From an uncultured Syntrophaceae bacterium (GTDB taxonomy: Bacteria; Desulfobacterota; Syntrophia; Syntrophales; UBA8958): DNA of 64,000 nt. A program made the translations under genes and the position numbers. Positions 17,696 to 34,322 of this stretch are shown here, piece after piece (the stretch's first letter is position 1; every line of letters starts with the position of its first letter). A model generated the notes under the pieces. The model had not been told where the DNA came from, did no database searches, and saw nothing but the letters and a program-made list of their open reading frames with translations. The stretch is taken from the NCBI GenBank assembly GCA_964492965.1, contig CAZBME010000001.1, forward strand, positions 210,705-274,704. Reading direction: 5' to 3'.

Positions 17696-17830
17696 ATTTA
17701 TGTCCTCTTCAATAAAAAATGTTGAGATTGTTTAAGACACCTTTAAACGTAAATAAATCTTGGATCCAGACAGGCGATCCAAAATCGACATAGCTGACGC
17801 GATAACAAGCCATCGATTTGTACTCTAACA

Positions 17831-17846
17831 GCAAAGACGGTGCCAG
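17831..17846 (-). promoter_or_regulatory. sigma-54 (-24/-12) promoter of the MCP/Cache operon
   Basis: The minus strand reads CTGGCAC-CGTCT-TTGCT, an exact TGGCAC-N5-TTGC with canonical GG-to-GC spacing. It lies about 135 nt upstream of the MCP start. Confidence 0.8.
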
Positions 17847-18166
17847 CTATGGAAAGCATCTGTCAGTAAAAGGCCTTTTCAGGGCACGGTCGGGGGATTT
17901 TACGCCATGATTTTGACAGGATGGCATTGGTTCCCCTTTATGGCATTATTCTGGTTGAATGCGTTAGACCCAAAGAGAAAGGCACCGATTTAACAGATAG
18001 GCCTGACTTGCATGGTAAATTATTTGACATGAGAGGCGGGGCTATCGTCAATTACTTGACATCGCCTTTACAGTTTCAACGAAAAGGGTCTTCAACGGGC
18101 GTAGCCCAGCCCTCCTGAACGGGTTGAGTGAAAGGTAGGATCAGCCATGGGAAAGCATGGGGAAAG

Positions 18167-18209
18167 CCGTCCTACCTCCCTGCTCAGGACGGGCAGGGAG
18201 GTAGGACGG
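18167..18209 (-). terminator. strong GC-rich hairpin immediately after the carboxylesterase gene (terminator-like, weak U-tract)
   Basis: CCGTCCTACCTCCCTGC-(9 nt)-GCAGGGAGGTAGGACGG forms a perfect 17-bp stem starting 15 nt past the stop codon. Confidence 0.6.
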
Positions 18210-18223
18210 TAAAAGGAAAATTG

Positions 18224-20011
18224 TTACCGAACAGACGGCCGATAACGGGAATTATCCCAAAAGGGCTGGATTTCCTTCACCCGGGGCTCCGCCTGCAAGG
18301 CTTTAAGAATATGGTCTTCCGTCAATTCTTTCCTGGAAATCTCGATTTTGAGGGTATTGGAATCTGCGTCGAGGAGAATGGTTTTCGGATATCCTTCGAT
18401 ATTGGACCAGGGTTTCCAGCCGGGCAATCCGGAACCCTCCCGGTTGGGACTGCCTGAACGGGCAAATTGAGCCCAATAGTCCATCATCGCATTCGACAGG
18501 GCAACCCGGCCGGGGCTGTTCTTGTCGTTGAAGACCAGCCCTCCGAGAGAAGCTTTTCCCGTTCCGAAGACAAAATCGATTTCCATGGCATGACAGGCGC
18601 CCAACAGGACATTAAAAGGAGGGGCAAGGACGCTCTTTTTCGCGCTGCCTGCCCCCCACAGGAACTGATAGGCATAAATCATAGGTTGATCGGCATTGGA
18701 TCTCAAGATTCCTGCCAACTGGTCGACACCCATGACCTTCCACCCATCGCTTTGATACTGGGCGGCAAGATCGTATAACTCTGCTTTGGCTGGATCTTTG
18801 AAAAGCGATCCGTCGGTTCTCCAGGATGCGAAGAGAGGGTCGTTACGCAGGAAAAGCTTTGCCTCTTCCTTGTTCGTTCCCAGAATGACAGGAACCCTAT
18901 TATACGCCCCCGCTTTCATGGCTTCGTAAAAATCAACAGGCAGAACCTTGCCATCGCTGAAGCTGTTCGGAAACCTGAACATCCCGATCACCGGTCCCTC
19001 GGCATAGAGGGCCAGCAATTCCCGGGCGTGCTTCGCTCTCAGATAATCAGCAACATCTTTACCTGACATTTTCTTCAGTTTGGCCTCAGCCGACTTTTCA
19101 TCGGATGCCATCCCGTCTTTCACGAAAAGTTTCAAAATTAAGCCATTCGCGTGTTGCGCCCCCTGATGAGGCGTCGACATTCGGATAACTCCGCTCTGGG
19201 AAATAGCCTTATGGAAGAGATTCCGGGAGAGAGGCGAGGCCATGAGAGAAATGACATTCTGCGCTCCGGCCGATTCCCCGACGATGGTTACATTTGCAGG
19301 ATCGCCGCCGAAGTTCTTGATGTTGGCCTTCACCCAGGACAAAGCCTGAATCAGATCCAAAAGGGCAAAATTACCTGAATCGCCGTTCTCATCTCCCTTC
19401 ATGCCATTGCGGAGGGAGGGATGACTGAGAAACCCCAATGGTCCCAGACGATAATTGACCGTCACCACAATCATGTTTTGCTTCCCCGCCAGGATGGCGC
19501 CATCCGTGTTGGAAAGCAGGGGCCATTGAATACTGTTTCCGCCACCGTGAATCCAGAAGAAGACGGGCAAATCCACGGCATCCGTTTTAGGACGCCAAAT
19601 ATTCAAATAAAGGCAGTCTTCATTGCCCTGAATCACCTGAGGCGTTGCGGGATTTCGGTCATGATCAATATACTGGGGGCATATCTCGCAAAAACCGGCC
19701 GCTTTAAAAGGAGCAGACCGTTTGTCGGGCGGCTGGGGGGCTCTCCAGCGCAGGTCGCCGACAGGCGCCTTGGCAAAGGGAATCCCTTTCCAGGAAAGGG
19801 TATGGGTTGCACTTTGCTCCTCACCTACAACATCGCCTTCCGTGGTCTGACGCACCGCAAGCAGTGACTCGGCGGCTTTTGTCTTTTCCTGGGCCCAAAC
19901 ATCCGTACCGTGAAAAGCTGCGATGTTGGGCAAAAGCACAAGCACAACCAAAACCAACCATAGAATCTTTTTCACCTGACGCATCTCATTGTATTTCTCT
20001 TTTTTCCTCAT
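18224..20011 (-). CDS. secreted type-B carboxylesterase/lipase (cholinesterase-like alpha/beta hydrolase)
   Basis: An N-terminal signal/TM segment is followed by the oxyanion region FWIHGGGNSIQ, the nucleophile elbow GESAGA, and a family-typical N-terminus (WKGIPFAKAPVGDLRW). Confidence 0.88.
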   Translation of the reverse strand: MRKKEKYNEMRQVKKILWLVLVVLVLLPNIAAFHGTDVWAQEKTKAAESLLAVRQTTEGDVVGEEQSATHTLSWKGIPFAKAPVGDLRWRAPQPPDKRSAPFKAAGFCEICPQYIDHDRNPATPQVIQGNEDCLYLNIWRPKTDAVDLPVFFWIHGGGNSIQWPLLSNTDGAILAGKQNMIVVTVNYRLGPLGFLSHPSLRNGMKGDENGDSGNFALLDLIQALSWVKANIKNFGGDPANVTIVGESAGAQNVISLMASPLSRNLFHKAISQSGVIRMSTPHQGAQHANGLILKLFVKDGMASDEKSAEAKLKKMSGKDVADYLRAKHARELLALYAEGPVIGMFRFPNSFSDGKVLPVDFYEAMKAGAYNRVPVILGTNKEEAKLFLRNDPLFASWRTDGSLFKDPAKAELYDLAAQYQSDGWKVMGVDQLAGILRSNADQPMIYAYQFLWGAGSAKKSVLAPPFNVLLGACHAMEIDFVFGTGKASLGGLVFNDKNSPGRVALSNAMMDYWAQFARSGSPNREGSGLPGWKPWSNIEGYPKTILLDADSNTLKIEISRKELTEDHILKALQAEPRVKEIQPFWDNSRYRPSVR

Positions 20012-20140
20012 CGGCTGCCAGTCTCCTTTATAAGTTTCACCATTAATGATATCGTATGATTAGAAACGTCAATAACAAAATATACACGTAAAATACAGGA
20101 TTATTCATCCATGGTTGAAAGCGGCGGGATGAGAACAAGA

Positions 20141-21052
20141 TTAATGGCCGACAACTGCGTTTACCCCCAGACCTTCAACAATGCCTTTTAATAACTGCAA
20201 TCGATCATCATCAGGCGCCTTGGCATCGGGCAGAAGATCGGGCCGTCCCAATTGTTTGTTTTTTGATCTTCCTCCTTCGTGATAGGGAAGGAAGGAAATC
20301 CTTTGTACTCCCAGATCCTTCCCGAAAAAGGCAATTTTCTTGATATGATCTTCAGAATCATTGAGCCCGGCAATAAGGGGAATACGAAGCCAAACGGGGG
20401 TTTTTTGCGCGGCCCTTTTCAGGTTACTCAAAATGACATCATGCCTCACGCCGGTGGTTCTTTCATGTTCGCCTGCATCAAGGTGCTTCAGATCGAAAAG
20501 GAGCAGATCAACCCAGGGCAGGAGGGCCTCCAGCGCCTTCCAAGAACCGTAACCGGATGTATCGAGAGCCGTGTACAATCCCTCATTTTTGCACTGCACC
20601 AACAGGTTACGGACAAACCGGCCCTGAGACAATGCCTCCCCTCCGGATATCGTCACACCGCCACCGGAGTTTTTATAAAAGATCCGGTCCTTAAGAACCT
20701 CCTCCAAAACCTCGGCAAGTGTCATCCCCTTCCCGCAGACGATCAGCGAACCATAGAGACAGGCGGGAACGCAGAGCATACAAAGATTGCATCGGCTGCG
20801 ATCGATGATTCGCCCTTTATCTCTTGAGAGGGTAATGGCCTTGTTGAGACAAGCGGCGACACAGGCACCGCAACCACTGCATAGGACATCCCTTGCCAAC
20901 AGGTCCGGGGAAAACCCCTGCGATTCGGGATTGGAACACCACAAACAACGCAGAGGACAACCTTTCATAAACACGGTGGTCCGAATCCCCGGCCCGTCGT
21001 GGACGCTGAAACGCTGAATATTGAAGATGAGGCCTGAGGCTTCGTCGTTCAT
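20141..21052 (-). CDS. glycyl-radical enzyme activating enzyme (radical SAM with a ferredoxin-like insert)
   Basis: The radical-SAM cluster motif is FSVHDGPGIRTTVFMKGCPLRCLWCSNPE (CX3CX2C). Two extra Cys clusters (CSGCGACVAAC and CNLCMLCVPAC) are typical of PFL2-class activases. Its start lies 4 nt from the GRE stop. Confidence 0.93.
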   Translation of the reverse strand: MNDEASGLIFNIQRFSVHDGPGIRTTVFMKGCPLRCLWCSNPESQGFSPDLLARDVLCSGCGACVAACLNKAITLSRDKGRIIDRSRCNLCMLCVPACLYGSLIVCGKGMTLAEVLEEVLKDRIFYKNSGGGVTISGGEALSQGRFVRNLLVQCKNEGLYTALDTSGYGSWKALEALLPWVDLLLFDLKHLDAGEHERTTGVRHDVILSNLKRAAQKTPVWLRIPLIAGLNDSEDHIKKIAFFGKDLGVQRISFLPYHEGGRSKNKQLGRPDLLPDAKAPDDDRLQLLKGIVEGLGVNAVVGH

Positions 21053-21055
21053 AGA

Positions 21056-23455
21056 TTATGTAAGGCTCTGCTCCGTTCTGGCGATAATATGGTCCTGGAG
21101 GCCCCGGGATAGATCGACGAAATAGGCGCTGAACCCGGCAACACGAACGATCATCTCGGCATACTTCTCTGGGTAGGTCTGGGCGGCGACCAAGGCCTTT
21201 TTATCGACAACATTGAACTGGATGTGGGGAACATTCAATTCCTTCCAGGATTTGAGGTAACCGATAAACGCCGGCCGAAAATCCGGTTCCAGGAACTTGG
21301 GAAGAAACTTCTGGTTCAGGAGGTGGTTATAAGTCTCCAGAGCCGTGATCTTAGCGCAGGATTTGAGGACTGCCGTGGGCCCTTTTTTATCCATCCCCGG
21401 TGAGGGCGCCAGGGTCGAGTCGGCAAAGGGCTCTCCATCCATACGGCCGTCCGGCGTGGCCGGGGTGTCGATGGCCAGTCCGTAAGTGGCGGAAACGGCG
21501 CTCCCGTCGCCCCGATTGGAAAAGCCATAGCGGTCTTTCACCGTTTCCATGACCGCCTCGCCCAAACGGTGGACTTCCTTGGCGACAAGATCGGCATAAT
21601 CGTCGTCGTTACCGAATTTTGGGGCGTTCAGACAGGCCCGGCGGATATCCTCCCGGCCTTCCCAGTTATTATCCATGATCCGGATCAATTCGGGAAGGGT
21701 AACCAGACCATCGTCGAAGACAACCTTCCGGAGCGCCGTTATGGCGTCGGCCACATTGGTCCCGCCGATGACCTGGGCAAAATGATGGATCATGGAGGGA
21801 TAGACCCACTTTCGGGCCTCTTGCCCCTTTTCGATACAACCTTCGACGACGGCGGAGTAAAAAGGCCGTGGGCAGTACTTGGCATACAACTCCAGGTTGA
21901 TCCTCTCCAATTGTTCAATCTTGTTTGTGAAGAATTGAACCTGCTCCAGATAGGACTGAAGGACATCCTCCCATGATTTGAATGTCGCCGGATCGGGTGT
22001 TCTGGCCCCCCGCTGTTCTCCCGTCTTGGGATTGACACCCTGATGGAGAGCCCACCAGAGGCATTTCGGGAGGACAAAATAACCTACGGAACGACGCATC
22101 ATATTTTTCCCGGGGATTTCGATATAGACACAGCCTGTGACGGCATAATCTTTCGCATCTTCCGGTGGCACCCCCCAACGATCCAGAAGGGGAAGGAGGG
22201 CTTCATCATTGAAGAGGGAGGGATAGCCCACGCCGGTTTTGATGACATCGGCAGCCTTCTCATAGACGCCCTCAGGCGTTCCCTCATGGATTCGCAAGCA
22301 GATGCTGGGTTCAATGAGCTGCAACTGTTTGGCTGCCTCCAGGGCGAGGTAGGTGAGATCGTTCGTCACGTCCCGACCATCTTTGTCAGTACCCCCGATG
22401 GTGACCGCCTGCAGGGAAGCCACACCGCCATAGACGGAACTCACCGTCGGCGAATAGACCAGCCCGAGTTCGTTGAGCTTGATCCAGAGGAGTTGGAGGA
22501 TGTCCAGGGCTTCTTCTTTTGTGATCCGCCCTTCTGCCAGATCCTTTTCATAATAGGGTCCGAAGATATGGTCGATACGGATGCCGACGCCTAATGTCGA
22601 GTATTCGAGATAGCGAATCAAGTGTATGAAAAAGAAAAACTGCACCGCTTCGGCGAAAGTCCTTGGCGGATTTTCGGGAACCCAGGCGCAGATACGGGCA
22701 ATCTCTTCCAATTCCGCGATTCTCGCCGGACGGGTTTCTTGTTTGGCTAGATTTCGGGCCAGTTCGGCGTAACGCCCGGCAAAACGGATGACTGCCTCCA
22801 GGGCGATGATCATGGCGTCGTAAAATTCCCGCTGTTCCACATAGTCGATGGGGATGGTCCCGTCGATCTCCTGAAGCCTCGCACGGACGGACTGAATCCG
22901 GCCCTTTAAACCTGTTTGAAAGAGGGTCTCGTAATCGGGGATGCCCAGTTCGGAGAGTTGGCTCCACAGATAGGTGCCTTCATAGGTCCAATAGGGCGAG
23001 AGGTCTTGCGGGAGGATCTCCTGGTGACGGTCGCTCATGGACTTCCCCTTCCAGTAGGCACAAAGTTCATCCAGTTCTCTGCGGCCGTCCTCATCCAGAA
23101 GCGTCTTCCCCGCCTCGCTGTTCACCAGCCTCAAAACCGATTTCCAGTTTTGATCAATGGGATGATAAATGCCGTTGGGATCAGATGTTTGATACCCCAC
23201 AATCCGCTCATGATCCCGGATAAAAATATCCATCTTATCCAAGAGATTGGCCAGGGCCTTGGCCCTGCGGACGACCATGGACTGTCCGTCCGTTTCCTTG
23301 AACGATTCCGTCATCAACCGGGACCGCTGCAAATCCAGCCTGATTTCCGACCGGTACATTCCCCGTTTCGACTCATCATCGGCGTAGCCCCGCTTGATAT
23401 TGCGAACAGCCTTGCTGATGACCTTTTTTCTTAGCCCTTCGGCTTTTGCTGTCAT
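21056..23455 (-). CDS. glycyl radical enzyme (PFL2 / dehydratase-like class by length and C-terminus); substrate unknown
   Basis: The 799-aa protein has the C-terminal glycyl-radical fingerprint MIVRVAGFSAYFVDL (Gly774 codon at 21134-21136). The Cys loop AVTGCVYIEIPG has its Cys442 codon at 22130-22132. No small-subunit genes are adjacent. Confidence 0.92.
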   Translation of the reverse strand: MTAKAEGLRKKVISKAVRNIKRGYADDESKRGMYRSEIRLDLQRSRLMTESFKETDGQSMVVRRAKALANLLDKMDIFIRDHERIVGYQTSDPNGIYHPIDQNWKSVLRLVNSEAGKTLLDEDGRRELDELCAYWKGKSMSDRHQEILPQDLSPYWTYEGTYLWSQLSELGIPDYETLFQTGLKGRIQSVRARLQEIDGTIPIDYVEQREFYDAMIIALEAVIRFAGRYAELARNLAKQETRPARIAELEEIARICAWVPENPPRTFAEAVQFFFFIHLIRYLEYSTLGVGIRIDHIFGPYYEKDLAEGRITKEEALDILQLLWIKLNELGLVYSPTVSSVYGGVASLQAVTIGGTDKDGRDVTNDLTYLALEAAKQLQLIEPSICLRIHEGTPEGVYEKAADVIKTGVGYPSLFNDEALLPLLDRWGVPPEDAKDYAVTGCVYIEIPGKNMMRRSVGYFVLPKCLWWALHQGVNPKTGEQRGARTPDPATFKSWEDVLQSYLEQVQFFTNKIEQLERINLELYAKYCPRPFYSAVVEGCIEKGQEARKWVYPSMIHHFAQVIGGTNVADAITALRKVVFDDGLVTLPELIRIMDNNWEGREDIRRACLNAPKFGNDDDYADLVAKEVHRLGEAVMETVKDRYGFSNRGDGSAVSATYGLAIDTPATPDGRMDGEPFADSTLAPSPGMDKKGPTAVLKSCAKITALETYNHLLNQKFLPKFLEPDFRPAFIGYLKSWKELNVPHIQFNVVDKKALVAAQTYPEKYAEMIVRVAGFSAYFVDLSRGLQDHIIARTEQSLT

Positions 23456-23491
23456 ATCATCCCCTTTTTTCTATCGTTGAGTGAAGATTCG

Positions 23492-24259
23492 TCAGAAACG
23501 GATCCCCTGACCGCCTCCGATAACCATCTCCTTGCCCGTCATGAATGATGCCGCATCCGAGCAGAGCCACAAAACGGCCCCGGCAATCTCTTCGGGCTTG
23601 CCGAAACGTCTCAAGGGCACTGTGGCGATAATCGCATCTTTCATTTGAGGGCTCTCCGTACATAACGCCTCCACCATAGGCGTCTGTACAAACCCCGGAC
23701 AGACGGCGTTGACACGAATGTTCCGATGGGCGGTCTCGAGGGCGGCCGCCTTCGTGAGGCCCAAAACGGCATGCTTGCTGGCGGCGTAGAGGCTCATTCC
23801 TTCTTCGCTGCGGATGCCGGCCATCGACGAGCAGTTGACGACAGCCCCGCCGCCCTGCTTCACCATCATGGGGATTTCATACTTCAGGCAGAGCCAGACG
23901 CTTCTGAGGTTGGTGTCCATGATCGTGTTCCATTCGTCCATGGTCGTATTGGCAAGCCGTCGGACGGAAGCCCCGACGCCGGCATTGTTGAAGGCGCAGT
24001 CCAACCTGCCGTATCGTTCGGCAATCGCTTTGAAAAGGTTTTCAATATCGCCGGGCAGTGCAACATCGGTTTTGATGAAAATCGCCTCTCCCCCATTATC
24101 TTCTATTTCTTTCACGACTTCAACACCAAGTTTCTCCCGGCGAGCCGCAATGACGACCTTCGCGCCTTCCCGGGCAAAAGCCAGAGCGGCCGCACGGCCT
24201 ATCCCGGAATTCCCTCCAGTCACCAGTGCAACCATGTCCTGAAATCTTTTTGTGTTCAA
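23492..24259 (-). CDS. classical short-chain dehydrogenase/reductase, paralog B
   Basis: VTGGNSGIGRA, NNAG and S...YAASK are present. I place the start at the TTG at 24259, 6 nt after AAAGGAGG. The track start at 24280 lies inside or upstream of that SD. Confidence 0.88.
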   Translation of the reverse strand: MNTKRFQDMVALVTGGNSGIGRAAALAFAREGAKVVIAARREKLGVEVVKEIEDNGGEAIFIKTDVALPGDIENLFKAIAERYGRLDCAFNNAGVGASVRRLANTTMDEWNTIMDTNLRSVWLCLKYEIPMMVKQGGGAVVNCSSMAGIRSEEGMSLYAASKHAVLGLTKAAALETAHRNIRVNAVCPGFVQTPMVEALCTESPQMKDAIIATVPLRRFGKPEEIAGAVLWLCSDAASFMTGKEMVIGGGQGIRF

Positions 24260-24282
24260 TTTGCGCCTCCTTTGTTCCAATA

Positions 24283-25047
24283 TTAAATCGTGTAGCCCCC
24301 GTCTATGGCAATCTCCTTGCCGATCATAAAGGCGGCCTCATCCGAGCAGAGCCAGAGCACCGCACCGGCAATCTCGTCCGGAGAGCCGATCCGCTTCATG
24401 GCCGTACCGTTTTTCAGCATGCCCAGCATGGTGGGCACGAACGGCACCGCGCTTTCGATCATTTCCGTCATGATCGGACCGGGACAAACGGCATTGATCC
24501 GGATATTTTTCCGGGCGTACTCGAGGGCCGCCGTTTTTGTCAGACCCAGGATGCCATGCTTGCTGGCACAATAATGGGTAAGACCGTATTCGCCCGAAAA
24601 ACCGAGGATAGAGGCCGTGTTCACGATGATCCCTCCCCCCTGCTTCAGCATCTGCGCGATTTCCTGTTTCATGCACAGCCAGATGCCACGCATATTGGTC
24701 TCCATGACCAGGTTCCATTCGTCCAATGTGGTCTTGGCGGCGGTGGGAATATGGGGCAGAGATGCGCCGGCATTGTTGAAAGCGATGTCCAAACGTCCAT
24801 ACATTTCAAGGATTGTTTTAAAGAGATGATCGATTTCTTCGGGTTTGCGGACGTCCGTCCTGACAAAGGCCGCTTCACCCCCACTATTTCTAATTTCTTC
24901 GACAACCTCGTTTCCAAGGTTTTCCCGGCGTCCCGCAATGACGACCTTCGCCCCTTCCCGCCCGAAGGCTAAAGCCGCGGCTCGCCCGATTCCCGAAGTG
25001 CCACCCGTGACCAGAGCCACTTTGGCTAAAAACATTTTAATGTCCAA
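24283..25047 (-). CDS. classical short-chain dehydrogenase/reductase, paralog A
   Basis: VTGGTSGIGRA, NNAG and S...YCASK are present. The track ORF runs to 25182 but crosses an intergenic repeat. A plausible start is the TTG at 25047 after AAGGAGAAG, or the ATG at 25035. Confidence 0.85.
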   Translation of the reverse strand: MDIKMFLAKVALVTGGTSGIGRAAALAFGREGAKVVIAGRRENLGNEVVEEIRNSGGEAAFVRTDVRKPEEIDHLFKTILEMYGRLDIAFNNAGASLPHIPTAAKTTLDEWNLVMETNMRGIWLCMKQEIAQMLKQGGGIIVNTASILGFSGEYGLTHYCASKHGILGLTKTAALEYARKNIRINAVCPGPIMTEMIESAVPFVPTMLGMLKNGTAMKRIGSPDEIAGAVLWLCSDEAAFMIGKEIAIDGGYTI

Positions 25048-25087
25048 TATCCATCTTCTCCTTTCTTCAAATACTGCAAAAGCCCTC

Positions 25088-25140
25088 GTTCCCCTCCCCC
25101 CTAAAAAGAGGAGTTCAAAATAGAGGTTTGGGAAACAAAG
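25088..25140. repeat. intergenic repeat, copy A (polypyrimidine/polypurine element)
   Basis: The plus strand reads GTTCCCCTCCCCCCTAAAAAGAGGAGTTCAAAATAGAGGTTTGGGAAACAAAG. It aligns by eye with copy B at 26979-27035. Confidence 0.55.
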
Positions 25141-25199
25141 GGCATTTTCCTCGCAGACCGCAGAAGAGAACGTCTTCCTCAAGCCATAAAGTCAACTTC

Positions 25200-25577
25200 C
25201 TATTTTATCTTTTTACCTTCCCAGGTACCTTTTGCCTTGCCCGCAAAATCAACGGTGCCGGACATTTTCTTGGGGTCAATCACTTTACCCGTGTATATAG
25301 CCGGTCCTGCTTTGGGATCCGTCGTAAACTGGAAGGTAATATCGTTGCCCTTAAGAGTCCCTGTTAAGGGCGCTTCCCCGATAGAACCGGCATATTGTCC
25401 CGTCAATTTTTCTCCTTCCTGCTTGAATGTCACGACAGGATTGCCGCTGCCTTTGGGGGTAACAACGGTGAAAAACCACTTACCGGTAATATTCGGGCCC
25501 TGTGCCTGAACCAATGTTGCTGATGCTGCCAAACCCATAACGACCAAACACACAACGACCACACTAAATCTTTTCAT
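25200..25577 (-). CDS. small secreted beta-rich protein; function unknown
   Basis: The signal peptide is MKRFSVVVVCLVVMGLAASATLVQAQG. Repeated G-K-W/LTG-x-F beta-strand-like motifs follow. I moved the start to the ATG at 25577, 6 nt after AAGGAG. Confidence 0.7.
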   Translation of the reverse strand: MKRFSVVVVCLVVMGLAASATLVQAQGPNITGKWFFTVVTPKGSGNPVVTFKQEGEKLTGQYAGSIGEAPLTGTLKGNDITFQFTTDPKAGPAIYTGKVIDPKKMSGTVDFAGKAKGTWEGKKIK

Positions 25578-25590
25578 AAGCATCTCCTTC

Positions 25591-25630
25591 ATATTTTATT
25601 GTCTGATTTTATTGTCTTGATTTTATCTTA
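25591..25630. repeat. three imperfect tandem copies of ATTTTATTGTCTG in a 35-nt intercistronic gap
   Basis: The sequence ATATTTTATTGTCTG ATTTTATTGTCTTG ATTTTATCTTA lies between the MFS stop and the start of the small secreted protein. Confidence 0.5.
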
Positions 25631-26893
25631 TATATGGCCCTTTGATTCCTTCAGCATGAGGATGGCAATCATCGCAATGAGATAGAATACCGAGATAGCT
25701 GTCATAACCGTCGTCAACCCCAGTTGCGAAGCCGCTGCGCCCATGGCGAGCGGGACGATTGTAGAGATCAGACGTCCTGTCGAGAATCCGGCAGCAACAC
25801 CCACCGCACGGATATGGGTGGGAAATTGTTCAACCAGATAAGCGGCCAGAATAGCCCAGATGGCCGACGCGACAAACCAGTTTGCACCTCCGCATAAGAA
25901 GAATATTCTGTCGTCTTCCCACTCAAATCCAAGCCACACATAAAACGTGACTGCCGAAAGAAACGCAAAGGCGGCCATTGAAACGCGCTTGCCGAATTTA
26001 TGGGCGCAAATGCCGCCCATCAGATAAGCGGCAGCGGCGGCAAACTGCAAAACCATCAGGAACGTGGAATATACTTTCGGGCTCAGGCCTCTTTCCCTGG
26101 CCAGAACCGTGGGAAGGAACGTGTTAACTGACCAGTAAGTGATCATCATCGACGTGCATAGAACAACAACCCACAAAAACGATCGAATGTTATCGCTTTT
26201 AAAAAGATCACCCATGCCAACCTCAGCCACAGGAACGCCGGCAGCGATGCCCTTTTTCTTGTCCGCCTGAAGTTGCATCCACATGGGCGATTCCGGAATG
26301 GCAACCTGGATGTAAATGGCAAGAAAAACAGCCGTTGCGCCGGCAAAATAAAGAATCGGCCAGCCAAAATAGGGGGTAAGAAAATAAGAGATTAAAATAG
26401 TGAGACCGTAACCGATCGGCCAACCAAACATCATGTAGGAGCTTATTTTAGCCCGCCTTGCAGGCTCCGTGAATTCCTGTAAAAGCGTGCCGGCCAGGGC
26501 CCATTCCGCGCCAAGCCCCAAACCCGCAAGGAATCGCAGAATTGACAGCTGGATGTAGTCTTGACAAAAACCGGCAAGACCTGTGGTAATGCCAAAGAAG
26601 GCAATACACCAGACCAACGCCGTTTTCCGGCCGAACTTGTCGGCGATGGGGCCAAAGATATAGCCGCCGAAACTCATGCCCAGCAGCATGCATGTGCCGA
26701 TAACACCAAGTTGCAGAATCGTGAGTGTCGGCCACGCATTTAATAACAAAGGCGCCGCAAGTGCAAAAACCATAATATCCATGCCGTCAAAGGCGTAACC
26801 GGCGATTGAAATCGCCAACACCTTCCCCCTGTACTTGGCGGCATCAACAATCCCACCTCCCACAGTTCCATTTCCCGCTACTGCAACTGACAT
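25628..26893 (-). CDS. MFS transporter
   Basis: The 421-aa protein has about 12 TM segments and the MFS loop motif GPIADKFGRKTAL. GAAGGAGG SD precedes the start. Confidence 0.88.
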   Translation of the reverse strand: MSVAVAGNGTVGGGIVDAAKYRGKVLAISIAGYAFDGMDIMVFALAAPLLLNAWPTLTILQLGVIGTCMLLGMSFGGYIFGPIADKFGRKTALVWCIAFFGITTGLAGFCQDYIQLSILRFLAGLGLGAEWALAGTLLQEFTEPARRAKISSYMMFGWPIGYGLTILISYFLTPYFGWPILYFAGATAVFLAIYIQVAIPESPMWMQLQADKKKGIAAGVPVAEVGMGDLFKSDNIRSFLWVVVLCTSMMITYWSVNTFLPTVLARERGLSPKVYSTFLMVLQFAAAAAYLMGGICAHKFGKRVSMAAFAFLSAVTFYVWLGFEWEDDRIFFLCGGANWFVASAIWAILAAYLVEQFPTHIRAVGVAAGFSTGRLISTIVPLAMGAAASQLGLTTVMTAISVFYLIAMIAILMLKESKGHI

Positions 26894-26978
26894 CTACTTT
26901 CCTCCTTCAATGAATTTATTACTACCATTATGACGCATACCGCTCTCGCAGCATTATAAGTGCTCAAAGCTTGAGTGG

Positions 26979-27035
26979 AATTCCCCACCCTCCAAAAAGA
27001 GGGGGTAAAACAGAGGGTGAGGAACCCAGACAAAA
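26979..27035. repeat. intergenic repeat, copy B
   Basis: The plus strand reads AATTCCCCACCCTCCAAAAAGAGGGGGTAAAACAGAGGGTGAGGAACCCAGACAAAAG. It shares the core with copy A: CCCC..CC.AAAAAGAGG.G.T.AAAA.AGAGG.T..GG.AA.C. Confidence 0.55.
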
Positions 27036-27053
27036 GCGCTTGATTGCGTTTCC

Positions 27054-28715
27054 TTATTTTCTGGCCATTTCTTCTTCCCGCAGGATCTTGCGGAGAATCT
27101 TGCCGACCGCTGACTTCGGAATGCCATCGCGAAATTCCACCAATTTCGGAACCTTGTACGGCGCCAGCTTTTCCTTGCAGAATTTAATGATCTCGGCCTC
27201 CGTGGCCGTTTGACCTGCTTTCAAAACAACGAAGACCTTGATGGTTTCTCCCCGATACGGATCGGGAACACCCACCGTAACCGCCTCCGCCACCTTGGGA
27301 TGCCGGTAGAGGACCTCATCCACTTCCCGTGGATAGATATTGAAGCCACCGGCAATGATCATGTCCTTCTTCCTGTCCACGATGGTGATATATCCATCCC
27401 CGTCCATCTGTCCGACATCCCCCGTACGGAGCCAACCGTCCCGCAACTGGAGATTGGTCTCCTCCGGATTGTTCCAGTAACCCAGCATCACGGTAGGCCC
27501 CTTGATGATGATCTCTCCCGGTTCGCCCTGCGGCACATCCTCCGTGCCGTTTTCGAGATCGACAAGGCGGACTTCGTTATCAATGGAAGGTACGCCGATG
27601 GAACCCGTCTTGTGGGCCAGGGCGGGGTTGCTGACCCCCATGGATGTCGTTTCACTCATTCCCCAACCTTCGCTGAAGAAAATCCCCATATCCTTAACCT
27701 TATGAATAAGTTCGACGGGCATGGGGGCTCCCCCGGAATTAAAGTAACGGATCTTTTCCGGAAGTTTCATCTCATCGGCCTTGGGGTGATTGATAATAGC
27801 CGTGATCATGGTCGGCACCGTCGGAAAGAAGGTGATTTGCTCAAAACGGGCAAAAGTGCCGAGCAATTCATCCATGTCGAAGCGGGGCAGCTGAATCTGG
27901 GTCGCCATGCTCAAAAACGCCCAGTTCATGCAGCAGAGATTGCCGTAAATATGGAAATAGGGGATGATGCCCAGAACCGTTCGCTTCTCATGAGGGGTAT
28001 AGGGAATGGTCGAGTTCCCCCACTGGACGCACTGGAAGGTCGCTGCAACGACGTTGCCATGTGACAGGAGAGCGCCTTTGGGCAATCCCGTCGTCCCACC
28101 CGTAAACTGGATCAGGGCCGGATCATCAGGGCTGAAGGCCGTCCGGGGGATTCTTGTATCCATTGAACCGGCCAGGAGTTCCGAGAAGTGGTGCCACCCT
28201 TCTTCCAGTTCCAGATCCTTGGCCGTGCTCACATCAAACGCCTTGATATAGTCCGTCAGTCTTGTCACGATCATCTGCTTGAGCCCCAGTTCAATGGCCA
28301 GGGGCCGCATGGTAGGAAGGGCGCCGTCGAAGGTGATCAATGTTTCCAAATGAGTGTTTTCCATCATGAACTTAAGTTCGTCATGGGTGTATAAAGGGTT
28401 CATATTCACCACAATGGCCCCGGCAGACAGAGCAGCATAGTAGGCGATGATATACTGGGGACAGTTCGGCAGGGCGATGCCGATACGGTCGCCTTTCTTC
28501 ACGCCGAAGCGAATGAAGGCATTGGCCAGACGCAGGACCTGATCGCGCACCTGCCGGAAGGTCAGCTCCGTTCCATAGAAATCGACGGCTGCCTTGTGAG
28601 GAAACTGAGCCGCCGCCAGGTGGACCAGGTTCTGGATGGGGAATTTCGGGTAACGGATGGTGGTGGGAACATTATAATCGTAATTTCTTTGCCAAAAACG
28701 TGTTTCCAACAACAA
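27054..28715 (-). CDS. AMP-forming acyl-CoA ligase (FadD-like)
   Basis: Motifs FTGGTTGLPKGALLSH, GWGMSE, WLRTGDVG and PKSAVGKILRK are present. Three consecutive TTG codons (28715, 28712, 28709) after GGAGG make the start ambiguous by up to 6 nt. Confidence 0.92.
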   Translation of the reverse strand: MLLETRFWQRNYDYNVPTTIRYPKFPIQNLVHLAAAQFPHKAAVDFYGTELTFRQVRDQVLRLANAFIRFGVKKGDRIGIALPNCPQYIIAYYAALSAGAIVVNMNPLYTHDELKFMMENTHLETLITFDGALPTMRPLAIELGLKQMIVTRLTDYIKAFDVSTAKDLELEEGWHHFSELLAGSMDTRIPRTAFSPDDPALIQFTGGTTGLPKGALLSHGNVVAATFQCVQWGNSTIPYTPHEKRTVLGIIPYFHIYGNLCCMNWAFLSMATQIQLPRFDMDELLGTFARFEQITFFPTVPTMITAIINHPKADEMKLPEKIRYFNSGGAPMPVELIHKVKDMGIFFSEGWGMSETTSMGVSNPALAHKTGSIGVPSIDNEVRLVDLENGTEDVPQGEPGEIIIKGPTVMLGYWNNPEETNLQLRDGWLRTGDVGQMDGDGYITIVDRKKDMIIAGGFNIYPREVDEVLYRHPKVAEAVTVGVPDPYRGETIKVFVVLKAGQTATEAEIIKFCKEKLAPYKVPKLVEFRDGIPKSAVGKILRKILREEEMARK

Positions 28716-28739
28716 CTACCTCCTGAATCAATCAATCTT

Positions 28740-28756
28740 TGCATGGTGGCATCCAT
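28740..28756 (-). promoter_or_regulatory. candidate sigma-54 promoter of the ligase-to-GRE operon
   Basis: The minus strand reads ATGGATG-CCACC-ATGCA, with GG and GC at the canonical 12-nt register. The -24 half is weaker (TGGATG) and the leader would be very short. Confidence 0.4.
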
Positions 28757-29283
28757 TCTGAAAAAGGTCACACAAACCGGGAATTCCACCATCGGGGCCA
28801 TCTACCGGGAGAACAATAATTCATGCCGCCCTGATGCAAGCTTCTGTAAAATTGGGGAAGCCATTGCATTGTGCGTACCAGAACGGCAGAATCTTTCTAA
28901 CATGCTTATTTAACTTATTTATTTAATTAGGCGAAAGGCGACGATCTCATGATTAGCGATATTGATGTTTCAGTATCGTTGCAAACATCATCGCCATTGT
29001 AACTGATATGTAACGTTTATGAAACATTCACACCTCCGCAACCGCGGCGAATGCATCAGATTTGCTGGTTATTAAAAGCTCCTTGGGGCCGCTTACGCAT
29101 GCCTATGTGCTTTAGACTATATTGAGTGATTAATTGATATTTGTGTAAGGTATTTTTGCTTAGGGGTAAAAGTTACTATTTCGCAGAGAACCATTTAACA
29201 TTTTAGATCTTCGGTACGAGTCGGGATTGCACCTTTCAGCCATACTTTTCTTCATTCATAGAGCTTATACGAAATTTCTTCCG

Positions 29284-30519
29284 TCAGAAAGCTTTCGAGG
29301 TCCTGTGTTTCCAGGGCTCCGGCACCCAGAGATGGACAATCGCCAATGCAATGGCTGCGCCTGCGGCTGCCGTCAGGAAGACCCCGTTGAATCCATAGAT
29401 ATCAGTGATGACGCCTCCAAAGATGGCGCCGATGGTACTGCTCTCCTGGCTGAGACTGCTGGCCAGCCCCTGGCCGAAGCCGCGCAATTCGGGCTTGACG
29501 AGATCGGCAATCATGGTGCGGATGACCGTGAGGAGGACAACGATGCTGATGCTGTCTATAATGCGCACCATCATAACATGCTCATAGGAGGTGACGAACG
29601 TGTAGGCAAGCATGGTAACACCGCTAAGAAACATGCCGACCAGGAAAGTGGGTTTCCGCCCCACTTTGTCGGCACAGTATCCGCAAACGGGGGCAAAGAT
29701 GATGGTGCACAGGGCGCGAACGGCAAACAGATAGCTCATGCTGCTCATGTTCAGATGAAGGTTGTTTTTCAGAAAGAGGCTGAAGAGAGGGTCCACCATG
29801 GTATAGCCGACACGGTAGATGACAACGGCCGCAAGGAAGATCAGGTAGATTCGCCCAAGACTCTTTGTCTGCAGGAGGAATGTCCGGATACATTCCGGCA
29901 TGCCTTTTCCCCCGGCTGCCTTGACGTACGGCACCGTGCTTTTATCCAGGGTTTCCTTGACGAAGAAGAAAACAAACAGGCTGATAAGGCTGAATATCCC
30001 GCAGAAGATGAAGTAGGTGATAAAGTCGGACGCCTCGACAAAATATCCGGCAAAGATGGGGCCGATGAGCTGGCCGATGCCGCTGCTCACGCTGAAGAGA
30101 GCCACCGCACGTCCCAGTTGCATGGGCGGGAATGTGTCCGCGGCCATGGAGATGACGATCACGGGAATCATGAAAAAGGCAAAGCCTTCGATGAATCGCA
30201 GGACAAAGAAGGTAAGGAAGCTCTTGCCGAGAAAGGCGAAAAGAAAAAATACGATGCCGTAGAGGAATGCCCCAAGGATCAGGAACGGTTTGCGGCCATA
30301 CTTGTCACTCAGTTTACCGGCAAAGATACCGCTCGCAACCCCCCCAAAGGTGCCGATACTTATGAGAACACCGACCCCGGCGTTGGATATCCCGTAATCC
30401 TGGAAAAAAATGGGGAGTACCATGTAAATTGTAGAGGAGGTTATTTGAAGACCGACACAACTCAGAATCAAAATCCAGTAGTTGCGTTTCTGGTCTTTCG
30501 TGGGGCTAAGCGCGATCAT
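29284..30519 (-). CDS. MFS transporter (second one in the locus)
   Basis: The 411-aa protein has 12 TM segments and the MFS loop motifs GKLSDKYGRKPF and ADKVGRKPTF. The 445-aa plus-strand track ORF over it is antisense noise. Confidence 0.88.
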   Translation of the reverse strand: MIALSPTKDQKRNYWILILSCVGLQITSSTIYMVLPIFFQDYGISNAGVGVLISIGTFGGVASGIFAGKLSDKYGRKPFLILGAFLYGIVFFLFAFLGKSFLTFFVLRFIEGFAFFMIPVIVISMAADTFPPMQLGRAVALFSVSSGIGQLIGPIFAGYFVEASDFITYFIFCGIFSLISLFVFFFVKETLDKSTVPYVKAAGGKGMPECIRTFLLQTKSLGRIYLIFLAAVVIYRVGYTMVDPLFSLFLKNNLHLNMSSMSYLFAVRALCTIIFAPVCGYCADKVGRKPTFLVGMFLSGVTMLAYTFVTSYEHVMMVRIIDSISIVVLLTVIRTMIADLVKPELRGFGQGLASSLSQESSTIGAIFGGVITDIYGFNGVFLTAAAGAAIALAIVHLWVPEPWKHRTSKAF

Positions 30520-30693
30520 GAAGGGGCATATACTATGGATAGACGGGGATGTCGATGTAAATGAGCAATAACAGATAAAGCTATCAAAAGCGTATTCAGC
30601 CGTCTCCTCCCAATATTTATTAAATGAAAACTGATGGGAGAAGATTTAAGCCCCCGCTGTGACAGTTGTGCATCCCGGAGCAAGCTAATGCAT

Positions 30694-30722
30694 TTGTGTC
30701 TGGTTTTGGGGGCTGGTATAAT
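30694..30722 (+). promoter_or_regulatory. possible sigma-70 extended -10 promoter for the AcoR-type activator gene
   Basis: TTGTGT-N17-TATAAT, with TGG immediately upstream of the -10 hexamer, lies about 175 nt upstream of the ATG at 30896. Confidence 0.3.
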
Positions 30723-30895
30723 GGACACTGGCAGATCCGCCATCTCATGCTGAAGAACTTTTTCACTTGCTTTATCACATATTTTATGTTCCAGAGGCGT
30801 TCCACGATACATTCCATTGTGGAACATAATAGAAACTATTTTGAAACACTATGCTTATGTATAGCACCGAGAATAGATGGAAAGGAGAAAGCGGG

Positions 30896-32941
30896 ATGGC
30901 CGTTCAAAAACCCGGGACCAAGCATCCGTCACCGAATGAGCCGATCAAATTGGATGCAGTCTATGAGGATCGTTATAAGAGAACCTATCTGGAATGGAAA
31001 AAATATATCAAAGGGGCCGATCATGTCGATCCCGCTATCGTCCCCGAAGAGGTTCTGGAATCCTGGCATCGTTGCCGCCTGCTGAACGTCGATCCCCTGG
31101 GCAAACCAAACCATAAAATACTGACCGGAAATAACCTTCAGAAATTACTGTCAGACAACAAAGAATTTATCTCCATCAGCAATCCTTTCCTGGTCAATCT
31201 TTATCGATTCGTGAAAGGGTCCCGATTTGTCGTCGGCCTTTTCGATCGTGAGGGATACGTGCTTGATATCATGCAGGACAATGATGAGGCGATAGAGGAA
31301 AACCTCAACATGCAATGGCTACCGGGCGTTCGTTGGGATGAGAAATGCGCCGGAAACAACGCCGCCGGAACGGTCCTCGCATCAAAAAAGCCTATCCGGA
31401 TCTTCGGGACCCAGCACTACAACAAGACCTTCCACAAATTGACGGTTTCCAGCGCCCCCATTTTCAATCCCGAAGGCGAACTGATAGGCGGCATTACCCT
31501 GTCAGCCTTTTATTACGGCACAAACCCCCATACCCTGGGCATGGCCGTTGCCGCGGCTCAAGCCATTGAAAACGAGCTTCGGGCACAGAAAGCCCTGACT
31601 GAATGCAAAGCCGCCTTTGCAGAAACTGAAATAGCCTACAGTTTGCAGAAAACCGTCATTGAGTCCATCCCGGAGGCGCTGGTTGCCATAAACGGCAAGG
31701 GATATATCTCTATTATTAACGACAAGGCCCGGGACAAGTTTTACCTCAAGGACCGGAACATCGAGGGGAAGCATATACGAAACATCAGCGGAGAGATCAA
31801 TCACCGGTTCCTCAGTATGATCGAAACGGATGAACCCTTCACGGATGCCGAGGTCAGAATCTTTCATAAAAATGGCTACAACGATTACACACTCACCTGC
31901 AATCCCATACGAACGCCCACGGGAAAGATCATGGGCAAAATTCTAATCTTCTCCGAAATCAAACGGATCAAAACCCTGGTCACCAGAATGATCGGCGCCA
32001 AGGCAAACATACGCTTCGAGGATATCTGCGGCCGTAACCCCCGGTTCCAGATGACCCTGGAACAGGCGCGCCTGATCTCTCAAAGCAGCTCCAATGCCCT
32101 TCTTTTGGGTGAAAGCGGCACGGGAAAAGACATCTTTGCCCAGGCCATTCATAACGCCAGCCAACGCAAAGACGGTCCTTACGTGGCCATCAATTGTGCG
32201 GCAATTCCGCGGGATCTCATTACCAGCGAACTTTTTGGGTATTCCGAGGGGGCCTTCACAGGATCACGGCGCGGCGGCAATCAGGGCAAATTCGAGCTGG
32301 CCGACGGCGGCACTATCTTTCTCGATGAAATCGCCGAGACGCCTCTTGAATTGCAGGCAGTCCTCCTTCGCGTCATAGAGGATAAATCCATCATCCGCAT
32401 CGGAGGAAGCAGGGTCCGGCCGGTAGATACAAGGATCATCGCCGCAACGAACAAAGACCTTCTCGAAGAGGTCCGCAAAGGCAACTTCAGGAAAGATCTA
32501 TACTACCGCCTGAATGTTTTCACGATCCATATGCTGCCCCTGACGGAGAGGCTTGACGATATTCCCCTTCTGGTGGATGTTTTTATGAAGAAATACGGCA
32601 AAACCTTAGGAAAGAATATTAGCCCCCTTGATGAAAAGATCATGGAGGCTTTCATGCGATATTCATGGCCCGGCAATGTCCGGGAGCTGCAAAATGTGAT
32701 TGAAAGAATGATGAATTATGCCCGCTCAGATGAGTTGACCACCGATCTCATCCCGTCGGAAATCCTCAATACCCGTCATGCCACCGGTTCGGACATGGAG
32801 ATGGAGTCGCCCGGGGATACGGAACGAAAGTTAATCAGTCGCATGCTGAGCCTGAAGTTCCGTAAAAAACAGATCGCCGAGCGAATGAATATTTCCCGTA
32901 CAACACTTTTCCGCAAGATGAAGGAATATAGGCTGTCGTGA
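30896..32941 (+). CDS. sigma-54-dependent transcriptional activator, AcoR-like (N-terminal GAF-like sensor, PAS, AAA+, Fis HTH)
   Basis: The AcoR-type N-terminus contains VLESWHRCRLLNVDP. AAA+ motifs are GESGTGKD, ELFGYSEGAFTGS and RVIEDKSIIRIGG. The C-terminal HTH reads IAERMNISRTTLFRKMKEY. I place the start at the ATG at 30896, 8 nt after AAAGGAG. Confidence 0.9.
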   Translation: MAVQKPGTKHPSPNEPIKLDAVYEDRYKRTYLEWKKYIKGADHVDPAIVPEEVLESWHRCRLLNVDPLGKPNHKILTGNNLQKLLSDNKEFISISNPFLVNLYRFVKGSRFVVGLFDREGYVLDIMQDNDEAIEENLNMQWLPGVRWDEKCAGNNAAGTVLASKKPIRIFGTQHYNKTFHKLTVSSAPIFNPEGELIGGITLSAFYYGTNPHTLGMAVAAAQAIENELRAQKALTECKAAFAETEIAYSLQKTVIESIPEALVAINGKGYISIINDKARDKFYLKDRNIEGKHIRNISGEINHRFLSMIETDEPFTDAEVRIFHKNGYNDYTLTCNPIRTPTGKIMGKILIFSEIKRIKTLVTRMIGAKANIRFEDICGRNPRFQMTLEQARLISQSSSNALLLGESGTGKDIFAQAIHNASQRKDGPYVAINCAAIPRDLITSELFGYSEGAFTGSRRGGNQGKFELADGGTIFLDEIAETPLELQAVLLRVIEDKSIIRIGGSRVRPVDTRIIAATNKDLLEEVRKGNFRKDLYYRLNVFTIHMLPLTERLDDIPLLVDVFMKKYGKTLGKNISPLDEKIMEAFMRYSWPGNVRELQNVIERMMNYARSDELTTDLIPSEILNTRHATGSDMEMESPGDTERKLISRMLSLKFRKKQIAERMNISRTTLFRKMKEYRLS

Positions 32942-34293: not shown

Positions 34294-34322
34294 ATTAGGT
34301 CTCCTTTTTTAAATTCGTGTGC

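Follow-up and report, generated by a model that had tools for sequence, protein, structure and literature searches.

A conserved glycyl radical enzyme-activase pair without a characterised counterpart, probably an autonomous two-gene module in a mosaic gene cluster of an uncultured Syntrophaceae bacterium

Glycyl radical enzymes (GREs) are responsible for some of the hardest anaerobic reactions. The GRE considered here is a protein of 799 amino acids (aa) encoded at positions 21056-23455 on the minus strand of a 64,000-nucleotide stretch of DNA, referred to as the window, from an uncultured Syntrophaceae bacterium (contig CAZBME010000001.1 of assembly GCA_964492965.1). It is followed, after only 3 nt, by the gene for a radical-S-adenosylmethionine (SAM) activase of 303 aa with a two-cluster ferredoxin insert (20141-21052, minus strand). 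Both genes belong to a minus-strand run that begins with an AMP-binding acyl-CoA ligase of 553 aa (27054-28715) and continues with a transporter of the major facilitator superfamily (MFS1; 25628-26893; Pfam MFS_1), a small exported beta-barrel protein of 130 aa (25200-25592), two classical short-chain dehydrogenases/reductases (SDRs) recognized by Pfam and NCBIfam models and by their motifs (SDR1, open reading frame (ORF) 24283-25182, likely gene 24283-25035; SDR2, 23492-24280), the GRE, the activase, and an exported type-B carboxylesterase of 595 aa (18224-20011; COesterase domain, GESAG motif at residue 245). Upstream of the ligase lie a second transporter of 411 aa (MFS2; 29284-30519, minus strand; MFS_1, 217 bits) and, divergently transcribed from it, the gene for a sigma-54 enhancer-binding protein of 696 aa (30851-32941, plus strand) that consists of a sensor region, a PAS domain, an AAA+ domain and a Fis-type helix-turn-helix (HTH).

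This ten-gene layout had been proposed in an initial annotation of the DNA, and all of the ORFs were found at the coordinates and on the strands given there, with the expected Pfam or NCBIfam domains; the 130-aa protein lies outside all families of both collections. The spacings were likewise as described. SDR1 and SDR2 overlap by 4 nt, SDR2 and the GRE are 36 nt apart, and the tight SDR-SDR-GRE-activase group is separated from the esterase by an AT-rich gap of 129 nt with promoter-like hexamers. A gap of 160 nt, which contains a hairpin, lies between the ligase and MFS1. The true start of SDR1 is probably Met50 (about position 25035) and not 25182, so that about 165 nt separate it from the 130-aa gene. 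Domain searches and a check of the gap ORFs also upheld the absence from the window of bacterial microcompartment (BMC), small-subunit, sulfonate and proline genes: no gene of a size fitting a small subunit or a BMC shell protein was found in the intergenic gaps. Two ORFs were considered and set aside. The 103-aa ORF at 30516-30827, the only candidate for a small-subunit or shell gene in the gaps, is of low complexity and without protein-like features, and the 804-aa ORF at 8343-10757, a candidate second GRE, is a FadB-type fusion of 3-hydroxyacyl-CoA dehydrogenase (3HCDH) and enoyl-CoA hydratase (ECH).

The GRE matches PF02901 (PFL-like) with 541 bits and PF01228 (Gly_radical) with 78.5 bits. 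Its glycyl-radical motif is R771-V-A-G774-F, with Gly774 as the radical site, and is invariant in 134 homologues. The catalytic Cys442 lies within G-C-V-Y-I-E-I-P-G-K-N and aligns with Cys466 of IseG, Cys433 of glycerol dehydratase (GD) and Cys493 of TutD. By its domains, by Cys442 and by the adjacent activase the protein is a member of the GRE superfamily, in the PFL-like branch, with a predicted GRE activity. The activase scores 331 bits against TIGR02494 (cut-off 174) and carries the motif CX3CX2C at residue 32 and ferredoxin-type CX2CX2CX3C motifs at residues 58 and 88; with 236 bits against the BssD model TIGR04003, whose cut-off is 496, it is not BssD-type.

The initial annotation had called the GRE an orphan, and comparison with the characterised enzymes bears this description out: the equivalog cut-offs are missed and the residues that define the subfamilies are absent. 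The GRE lies under every NCBIfam equivalog cut-off, the best score being that for HpsG (551 bits, cut-off 1000), followed by HypD (466, cut-off 1100), CutC (437, cut-off 1050), HpfG (436, cut-off 1000), PRK09983 (409, cut-off 1109), IAD (377, cut-off 1100) and HPAD (298, cut-off 1150). Among solved structures in the PDB the best matches were IseG (465 bits), GD (442), CutC (439) and propanediol dehydratase (426), with Archaeoglobus PflD (389), MasD (371), BSS (350), AAD (332) and HPAD (220) following at lower scores. Every solved relative is a known enzyme at no more than 465 bits, including the unnamed entry 9RCO, which is a propanediol dehydratase. IseG, the nearest of them, is about 36% identical to the GRE, and the matches of about 465 bits in a search of representative sequences are 36-37% identical; profile and PDB comparisons yield no close match to any enzyme of known function. 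Automatic annotation as a pyruvate or 2-ketobutyrate formate-lyase was excluded, since the GRE has G-C instead of C-C and scores 84 bits against the pyruvate formate-lyase (PFL) model TIGR01255, with its cut-off of 994; PFL reached 81 bits in the PDB search. A search of the literature found no characterised member of the clade to which the GRE belongs and no expression data. An AlphaFold2 model built from 45 family sequences had a mean pLDDT of 66, with the Cys loop, the Gly loop and the barrel strands below 50, and was not used; its poor quality is attributed to an alignment that was too shallow, as all sequences were at least 75% identical.

The clade, here termed the CVY clade, comprises more than 900 proteins (E below 1e-50) that are 56-100% identical to the GRE, the best 120 being 75-100% identical. 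They derive mostly from metagenome-assembled genomes (MAGs) of Desulfobacterota, under labels that include Deltaproteobacteria or Thermodesulfobacteriota, Smithellaceae, Syntrophaceae, Desulfobacterales, Desulfatitalea and Desulfomonilaceae. A few members (56-76% identity) come from MAGs labelled Promethearchaeota or Hodarchaeota, namely L014 from a Hodarchaeota MAG at 56% and P0061, P0062 and P0102 from Promethearchaeota MAGs at 76%. The identities of these Asgard-labelled sequences are as high as those seen between bacterial orders, which points to recent horizontal transfer or binning contamination. In databases the members bear the names 'pyruvate formate lyase family', 'formate C-acetyltransferase' and 'choline trimethylamine-lyase', and the Smithella genome papers list such genes as 'formate C-acetyltransferase'. 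Across 134 full-length members (56-100% identity) Cys442, Tyr444, Glu169, Leu288, Gly289, Arg454, Arg455, Asp650 and Gly774 are invariant. Leu348 also counts as invariant; together with Glu169, Leu288-Gly289, Arg454-Arg455 and Asp650 it corresponds to active-site residues of known enzymes. Glu446 (Cys+4) is nearly invariant.

Among the representatives of a library clustered at 50% identity, the top match is 57% identical to the GRE, and the next clades follow at 38-45% (500-714 bits). The latter are nearer to the GRE than all characterised enzymes are. The Cys-x-Glu (CXE) motif is missing from the Cys loop of almost all these clades, and many share x-P-G-K-N after the Cys; clades with CXE appear only below about 500 bits. 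The residues at Cys+2 and Cys+3 of the nearest clades (P0137-P0155) are diverse (SW, GW, TW, QP, RW, SM, WP, IP), and together these clades make up a large, uncharacterised radiation of non-CXE enzymes among the PFL2-like GREs. One relative, P0156, has BSS and MasD as its own closest matches.

It is at the Cys loop that the GRE departs from all characterised classes. Where IseG has GCTE and GD has GCVE, the GRE has G-C442-V-Y444, with Tyr in the place of the Glu. All GRE 1,2-eliminases and isomerases keep CXE, with a Glu that proved indispensable for catalysis wherever this was tested, according to a review from June 2026 that covers every characterised GRE and stresses that whole clades are still without an assigned function (PMC13450708). 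The motif that marks the eliminases and isomerases (GD, propanediol dehydratase, CutC, HypD, IslA/IseG, HpsG/HpfG, HplG and YbiW/PflD) is therefore absent from the GRE. The only characterised GREs without the Cys-loop Glu are PFL (CC), the X-succinate synthases (C-M-S-P) and PAD (C-x-Q), and C-x-Y occurs in none. The decarboxylases HPAD and IAD rely on the Glu as well (Glu505 and Glu502, respectively); the GRE shows no equivalog-level similarity to them and has no Glu at Cys+2.

The substrate-anchoring positions of the nearest members are altered as well. The sulfonate-binding Arg189 and Gln193 of IslA/IseG fall in a five-residue segment that is missing from the GRE, and Arg678 of IslA and Tyr640 of GD both align with Asp650. 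Of the other GD residues, His164 corresponds to Glu169, His281 and Ser282 to Leu288 and Gly289, Tyr339 to Leu348 and Asp447 to Ser456. In a bridged alignment with TutD, which compares sequence columns only, Arg454 and Arg455 are offset by one to two columns from Arg508, which binds fumarate, and their loop has four residues fewer. The same alignment places hydrophobic residues of the GRE (V341, Y342, L348, V654 and A656) at positions of the toluene wall; E189, S199, W613, N615 and Q707 of TutD are not conserved.

The context of the GRE was examined at 20 genome loci and 49 metagenome loci, supplemented by targeted look-ups, from which ORFs were called and clustered to give 39 distinct contexts. 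Exact peptide patterns were used to find the loci and many of the contigs were short, which restricts the sample of contexts; the ORFs were simple longest-ORF calls. On this sample, conservation of the neighbourhood across genomes fails, the activase being the only gene kept. It adjoins the GRE in 40 of the 48 GRE-bearing loci, and every other protein cluster occurs in eight or fewer. The 149 immediate neighbours recorded at 43 loci show no dominant Pfam family: ABC ATPases lead with 10, ahead of PrmA-like methyltransferases and GNAT proteins (4 each), PdxA, AFOR and 3HCDH (3 each) and SDRs (2). When a panel of families was scored over the 39 contexts, acyl-CoA dehydrogenases (ACADs) and sigma-54 activators were found in 7 each, AMP-ligases in 6, SDRs and hydrolases or esterases in 5 each, and OYE-type reductases in 4; MFS transporters occurred in the window alone, and 17 contexts held no panel family. 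In the Smithellaceae, the most populous lineage, the GRE-activase pair sits amid housekeeping genes, between a threonine-dehydratase-like gene, an SDR and GlnRS. The search for a hidden partner also gave a null result: the unannotated proteins of about 320-350 aa that adjoin the GRE at various loci show no relationship among themselves, and there are no conserved small ORFs in the related GRE loci.

The initial annotation had held that neighbouring genes usually betray the substrate of a GRE. This did not hold for the present enzyme, as the flanks of the closest homologues are unrelated, the SDRs are non-orthologous and the modules are separable. The homologues with 87% and 86% identity have unrelated neighbours: one is flanked by genes for IlvD, an outer-membrane protein and a carboxyltransferase, the other by insertion sequence (IS) elements and tannase genes. 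SDRs near other CVY members are just about 35% identical to those of the window, and in the genome with the 87% homologue an SDR homologue of 69% identity is not within 10 kb of the GRE. The tandem SDR pair recurs at 75-80% identity in two other Desulfobacterota contigs (L081, 5546-7089; L082, 8214-9768) among unrelated neighbours, with no GRE, ligase, MFS or esterase gene nearby, and the pair of MFS transporter and small barrel recurs without a GRE (L080). The arrangement as a whole recurs only in a Logan contig that is near-identical to the window and so probably stems from the same population.

About 45% of the contexts hold at least one acyl-CoA gene. These genes were down-weighted as a pathway signal because their background rate is high, the window being unusually dense in acyl-CoA metabolism and sigma-54 control: about 15 of its roughly 52 genes are acyl-CoA-related, and four sigma-54 activators are present as well. 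The acyl-CoA set of the window comprises four thiolases, two ACADs, the FadB-type fusion, an ECH, two HMG-CoA-lyase-like genes and a CoA-transferase, accompanied by an HpaB/4-hydroxybutyryl-CoA-dehydratase-like gene and a second AMP-ligase with a Liv-type binding protein (for example at 7064-10757, 33136-36709 and 41689-53965). Two other contexts deserve mention. The 4.77-Mb contig with the 87% homologue (L026) carries, 6.6 kb downstream, another GRE of a different type (841 aa) together with a separate activase (18027-21562), and an acetate kinase gene lies between both GREs. In L051 and L052 (about 4600-7800) the CVY GRE is immediately preceded by genes for the large subunit of an acyl-CoA mutase, a B12-binding subunit and a MeaB-like GTPase, and a hydratase, an ACAD and ligases then follow; of all the contexts, this one most recalls alkylsuccinate processing.

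The accessory genes of the cluster can be assigned in general terms. SDR1 and SDR2 are paralogues (58% identical), both with TGxxxGxG and YxxxK; SDR2 scores 340 bits against PRK06172 (cut-off 336), and its PDB matches are generic secondary-alcohol dehydrogenases, including cyclohexanol dehydrogenase. For MFS1 the best family is that of the aromatic acid/H+ symporters (TIGR00895, 221 bits, cut-off 418), with matches to MhpT and PcaK too. The ligase matches generic fatty-acid-CoA ligase models, all under cut-off, and its best PDB matches are feruloyl-CoA synthetase and 4-coumarate-CoA ligase. The esterase (COesterase, 313 bits) has an N-terminal signal-like segment and p-nitrobenzyl esterase among its best PDB matches. 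The 130-aa protein consists of a signal peptide and about 100 aa of mature sequence and is without any Pfam or NCBIfam match; its AlphaFold2 model (mean pLDDT 86, 92-98 in the barrel region) is a small beta-barrel of about nine strands. Foldseek detects a weak likeness to avidin-like, FABP-like and designed ligand-binding barrels (TM 0.4-0.58), and the family has 96 homologues, which are unannotated. The pair of barrel and MFS genes occupies 25200-26893 in the window and 8651-10384 in L080, and the barrel gene is duplicated in L079 (9139-10384). The small barrel may bind ligands in the periplasm as a partner of MFS transporters.

Regulation of the cluster is suggested by the activator, which matches PF00158 with 221 bits, has a Walker A motif and GAFTGS at residue 467, and resembles DhaR (390 bits) and PrdR (384 bits), both under the NCBIfam cut-off. 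The candidate sigma-54 promoter of the initial annotation, at 28740-28756, agrees with only 7 of 11 consensus positions, and a better candidate is TGGTAC-N5-ATGCA at 28865-28880 on the minus strand, 150 nt upstream of the ligase start, which agrees with 9 of 11. No other 9/11 match lies on the right strand within the gaps between the cluster's genes. Consensus matches occur in the whole window at the chance rate (32 observed, 31.8 expected), and the argument for this promoter therefore rests on position and orientation. No operator shared by the palindrome between the activator and MFS2 (30784-30829) and the region upstream of the ligase was detected, matches being at the chance rate. A perfect 17-bp inverted repeat just 3′ of the esterase stop (18167-18209, minus strand), a probable terminator, is probably the end of the unit. 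It is plausible that the run, or at least SDR1-SDR2-GRE-activase, is co-transcribed in this lineage. The ligase-MFS1 and activase-esterase gaps leave room for internal starts or stops. The 129-nt gap may hold the esterase's own promoter, and the GC-rich hairpin in the ligase-MFS1 gap (26985-27030, minus strand; CCTCACCCTC...GAGGGTGGGG) might be a repeat element or might act as a terminator or internal attenuator.

Other signals of this kind occur in the window outside the cluster. A perfect sigma-54 consensus, TGGCAC-N5-TTGCT, lies at 17830-17845 (minus strand), 135 nt upstream of a methyl-accepting chemotaxis gene (16103-17695), which is followed by genes for two small single-Cache-domain proteins (15584-16072 and 15068-15562), a separate sigma-54 unit downstream of the esterase terminator; the chemotaxis gene and both Cache genes also follow the esterase in an independent contig (L078). 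The ORF at 13811-14977 (plus strand) encodes a regulator in which a PocR sensory domain is fused to a LuxR-type HTH. PocR domains are linked to the sensing of propanediol-like small molecules. On the other side of the cluster, TGGTAT-N5-TTGCT is found at 36644-36659 (minus strand) within the 5′ end of an over-long 3HCDH ORF (33136-36709, minus strand), the Pfam domain of which begins at residue 59. This site probably serves as sigma-54 promoter for a 3HCDH-thiolase-ACAD operon under a second, divergent activator with GAFTGA (36857-38260, plus strand).

It is considered probable that the GRE and its activase, both intact and from a conserved clade that is as yet uncharacterised, are an autonomous two-gene module within a lineage-specific mosaic cluster. 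Across the contexts the pair is inserted among unrelated genes, some of them housekeeping genes, as an autonomous two-gene module, and the tandem SDR pair is a second autonomous module that lies 36 nt ahead of the GRE here. Because only the activase travels with the GRE, the gene set of the cluster cannot be read as the conserved pathway of the enzyme. With the SDR pair, the MFS and barrel module, the ligase and the esterase, the GRE-activase pair forms a co-directional cluster specific to this lineage, which may be a catabolic operon of recent assembly. The cluster is probably driven from a sigma-54 promoter under the adjacent activator and probably ends at the hairpin after the esterase. In the proposed mechanism, the activase, with one SAM cluster and two ferredoxin-type clusters, would install the radical on Gly774, from which it would be relayed to Cys442. 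Arg454 and Arg455 would anchor a substrate carboxylate, Tyr444 would be a possible proton relay, as proposed for a Tyr of PhdB, and the reaction would be one that needs no Cys-loop base, such as a decarboxylation. As to the specific chemistry, we tentatively suggest, as a possibility short of probable, that it is not a Glu-assisted elimination and that a carboxylate-bearing, largely hydrophobic substrate undergoes decarboxylation or another C-C reaction. A stand-alone decarboxylase would explain the lack of conserved partner enzymes.

Several points weigh against this interpretation. The carboxylate and no-base chemistry is derived from mapping onto other structures and not from a model of the enzyme, and Glu446, Glu169 or Asp650 could be an alternative base, with which an elimination would be possible. 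Raw similarity is nearer to the eliminases (439-465 bits) than to the X-succinate synthases (350-371) or the decarboxylases (220-332). The tight spacing of SDR2, GRE and activase (36 and 3 nt) speaks for functional coupling in this lineage, so that the neighbours are maybe informative after all, and the acyl-CoA genes in about 45% of the contexts could be a real link to CoA-dependent catabolism. A broader proposal, which we regard as unlikely, is that the CVY clade and its nearest sister clades, nearly all of them non-CXE, form a new functional class of GREs with a hitherto undescribed type of reaction, and that the enzyme was recruited in this lineage into a sigma-54 operon for the anaerobic degradation of an esterified plant or pollutant aromatic or alicyclic acid, with the whole cluster serving one substrate.

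The cluster might alternatively encode one integrated pathway, in which the exported esterase would hydrolyse an ester outside the cell, an MFS transporter would take up one moiety, the GRE would carry out the key radical step, the SDRs would oxidise its product, and the ligase would activate that product for beta-oxidation. This is essentially the route of ester hydrolysis, import, radical chemistry, oxidation and CoA activation put forward in the initial annotation, and we give it a small chance of being correct. Its genes are co-directional, the SDR-SDR-GRE-activase group is tightly spaced, a single sigma-54 candidate and a single strong terminator frame the whole run, and an activator adjoins it. 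The ligase is similar to feruloyl- and coumaroyl-CoA ligases and MFS1 to aromatic-acid symporters. Apart from the carboxylesterase of the window, four other contexts have esterase- or hydrolase-type genes close to the GRE (an abhydrolase in L003, L009 and L011, a tannase in L027), and ACAD, thiolase and 3HCDH genes are present 10 kb away. The arrangement is reproduced in an independent assembly, but that assembly is the near-identical one that probably represents the same population. Moreover, the activase is the sole orthologous partner kept across the 39 contexts, the closest homologues are without any of the cluster's other genes, the SDR pair and the MFS and barrel pair are independent modules elsewhere, the 69% SDR homologue is not within 10 kb of the GRE in the genome of the 87% homologue, and the gaps of 129 and 160 nt mean that the run may be two or three transcription units. 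Local spacing speaks for the proposed pathway, and the comparative evidence as a whole against it.

Two further alternatives concern the reaction itself. That the GRE is a non-canonical 1,2-eliminase or isomerase acting on a hydroxylated substrate such as a diol, an amino-alcohol or an aryl ether, with Tyr444, Glu446, Glu169 or Asp650 replacing the Glu, is distinctly unlikely in our estimate, and this estimate includes the version in which the SDR pair handles a carbonyl product or supplies the alcohol substrate. The closest characterised relatives are all eliminases, and two SDRs with apparently intact catalytic motifs are predicted directly upstream; an SDR follows the activase in the Smithellaceae, another lies near the GRE in L048, and AFOR aldehyde oxidoreductase genes are near the GRE in three contexts. 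Against these stand the retention of CXE by every characterised eliminase and isomerase, when its replacement by Tyr is invariant throughout the clade, the change of H164, H281, S282, Y339, D447 and Y640 of GD, all six of them, and the non-orthology of the SDRs near different CVY members (about 35% identity). A hydroalkylase akin to the X-succinate synthases, which would join a hydrocarbon or alkyl group to fumarate, would account for the missing Cys-loop Glu (TutD has C-M-S-P), for the invariant Arg454 and Arg455 beside the Arg508 column and for the hydrophobic residues at the toluene-wall positions. It would also suit contexts with a CoA ligase, with an acyl-CoA mutase and MeaB (L051, L052), with a carboxyltransferase (L026), or with a thiolase and DUF35, and there is a precedent in the single-Cys PflD-like GREs of Asgard MAGs and Archaeoglobus, which have been so interpreted at 29-33% identity (PMC8163825). 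All characterised X-succinate synthases, however, have beta and gamma subunits (PMC13450708), the genes for which are absent here and have no counterpart in conserved small ORFs elsewhere. The BSS and MasD scores (350-371 bits) are below those of the eliminases, the activase reaches 236 of the 496 bits of the BssD model, TutD residues E189, S199, W613, N615 and Q707 are not kept, and the housekeeping contexts of the Smithellaceae are unfit for a hydrocarbon pathway. We therefore regard a hydroalkylase as improbable, and the autonomous GRE-activase module remains the reading adopted here.

An orphan GRE is unsurprising in itself, as the superfamily and its logic are already known. What makes this one worth keeping is that it belongs to an abundant, conserved clade that departs from the characterised classes at the catalytic loop, that it is part of a larger non-CXE radiation, and that it is widely mis-annotated. 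Each GRE clade newly assigned so far gave new chemistry or a new route of carbon or sulfur cycling. The CVY clade is abundant in syntrophic and sulfate-reducing Desulfobacterota of sediments, peat, groundwater and digesters, is unusually conserved, and is routinely mis-annotated as pyruvate formate-lyase, as choline trimethylamine-lyase or, in related PflD-like cases, as alkylsuccinate synthase. Assignment of its reaction would correct many metabolic reconstructions, and the superfamily could gain a reaction type. Since the neighbours are uninformative on the substrate, biochemical screening should lead, and not genomic context; the enzyme family is a worthwhile target even though the ester-degrading pathway is unsupported.

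Among the known systems, IseG/IslA (5YMR, 7KQ3) and GD (1R8W) share with the GRE the PFL-like and Gly_radical architecture, a similar length, the single catalytic Cys, the RVAG motif and an adjacent ferredoxin-insert activase. They differ in that identity is about 36%, the Glu of CXE is replaced by Tyr in the GRE, the substrate-anchoring residues are exchanged, and the scores of the GRE miss the equivalog cut-offs of such families by about half. The alpha subunits of BSS and MASS (4PKC, 9O8U) likewise have no Cys-loop Glu, and they resemble the GRE in having a basic residue in the loop that follows the Cys loop and in hydrophobic residues at several pocket positions. They differ from it by their beta, gamma and delta subunits, by C-M-S-P in place of C-V-Y-I, by a BssD-type activase and by fumarate and toluene contacts that are mostly unmatched. 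The PflD-like GREs of Asgard MAGs and Archaeoglobus (PflD, 2F3O) are, like the GRE, proteins of about 800 aa with a single Cys from sediment anaerobes, yet Archaeoglobus PflD reaches only 389 bits, and the Ass/Bss assignment of the Asgard proteins, which rests on 29-33% identity, is itself a sequence-based annotation (PMC8163825). PhdB, or PAD, is a decarboxylase without small subunits and with C-x-Q, and thus, like the GRE, belongs to a stand-alone GRE-activase pair that lacks the Cys-loop Glu; a Tyr has been proposed as the proton donor to the Cys thiolate in this enzyme (PMC7079210). By spacing from the Cys and the Gly, and without an alignment, PhdB His327, Gln484, Trp495 and Tyr691 would correspond to Leu288, Tyr444, Arg455 and Asp650 of the GRE, which suggests that none of the PhdB residues tested by mutagenesis is kept.

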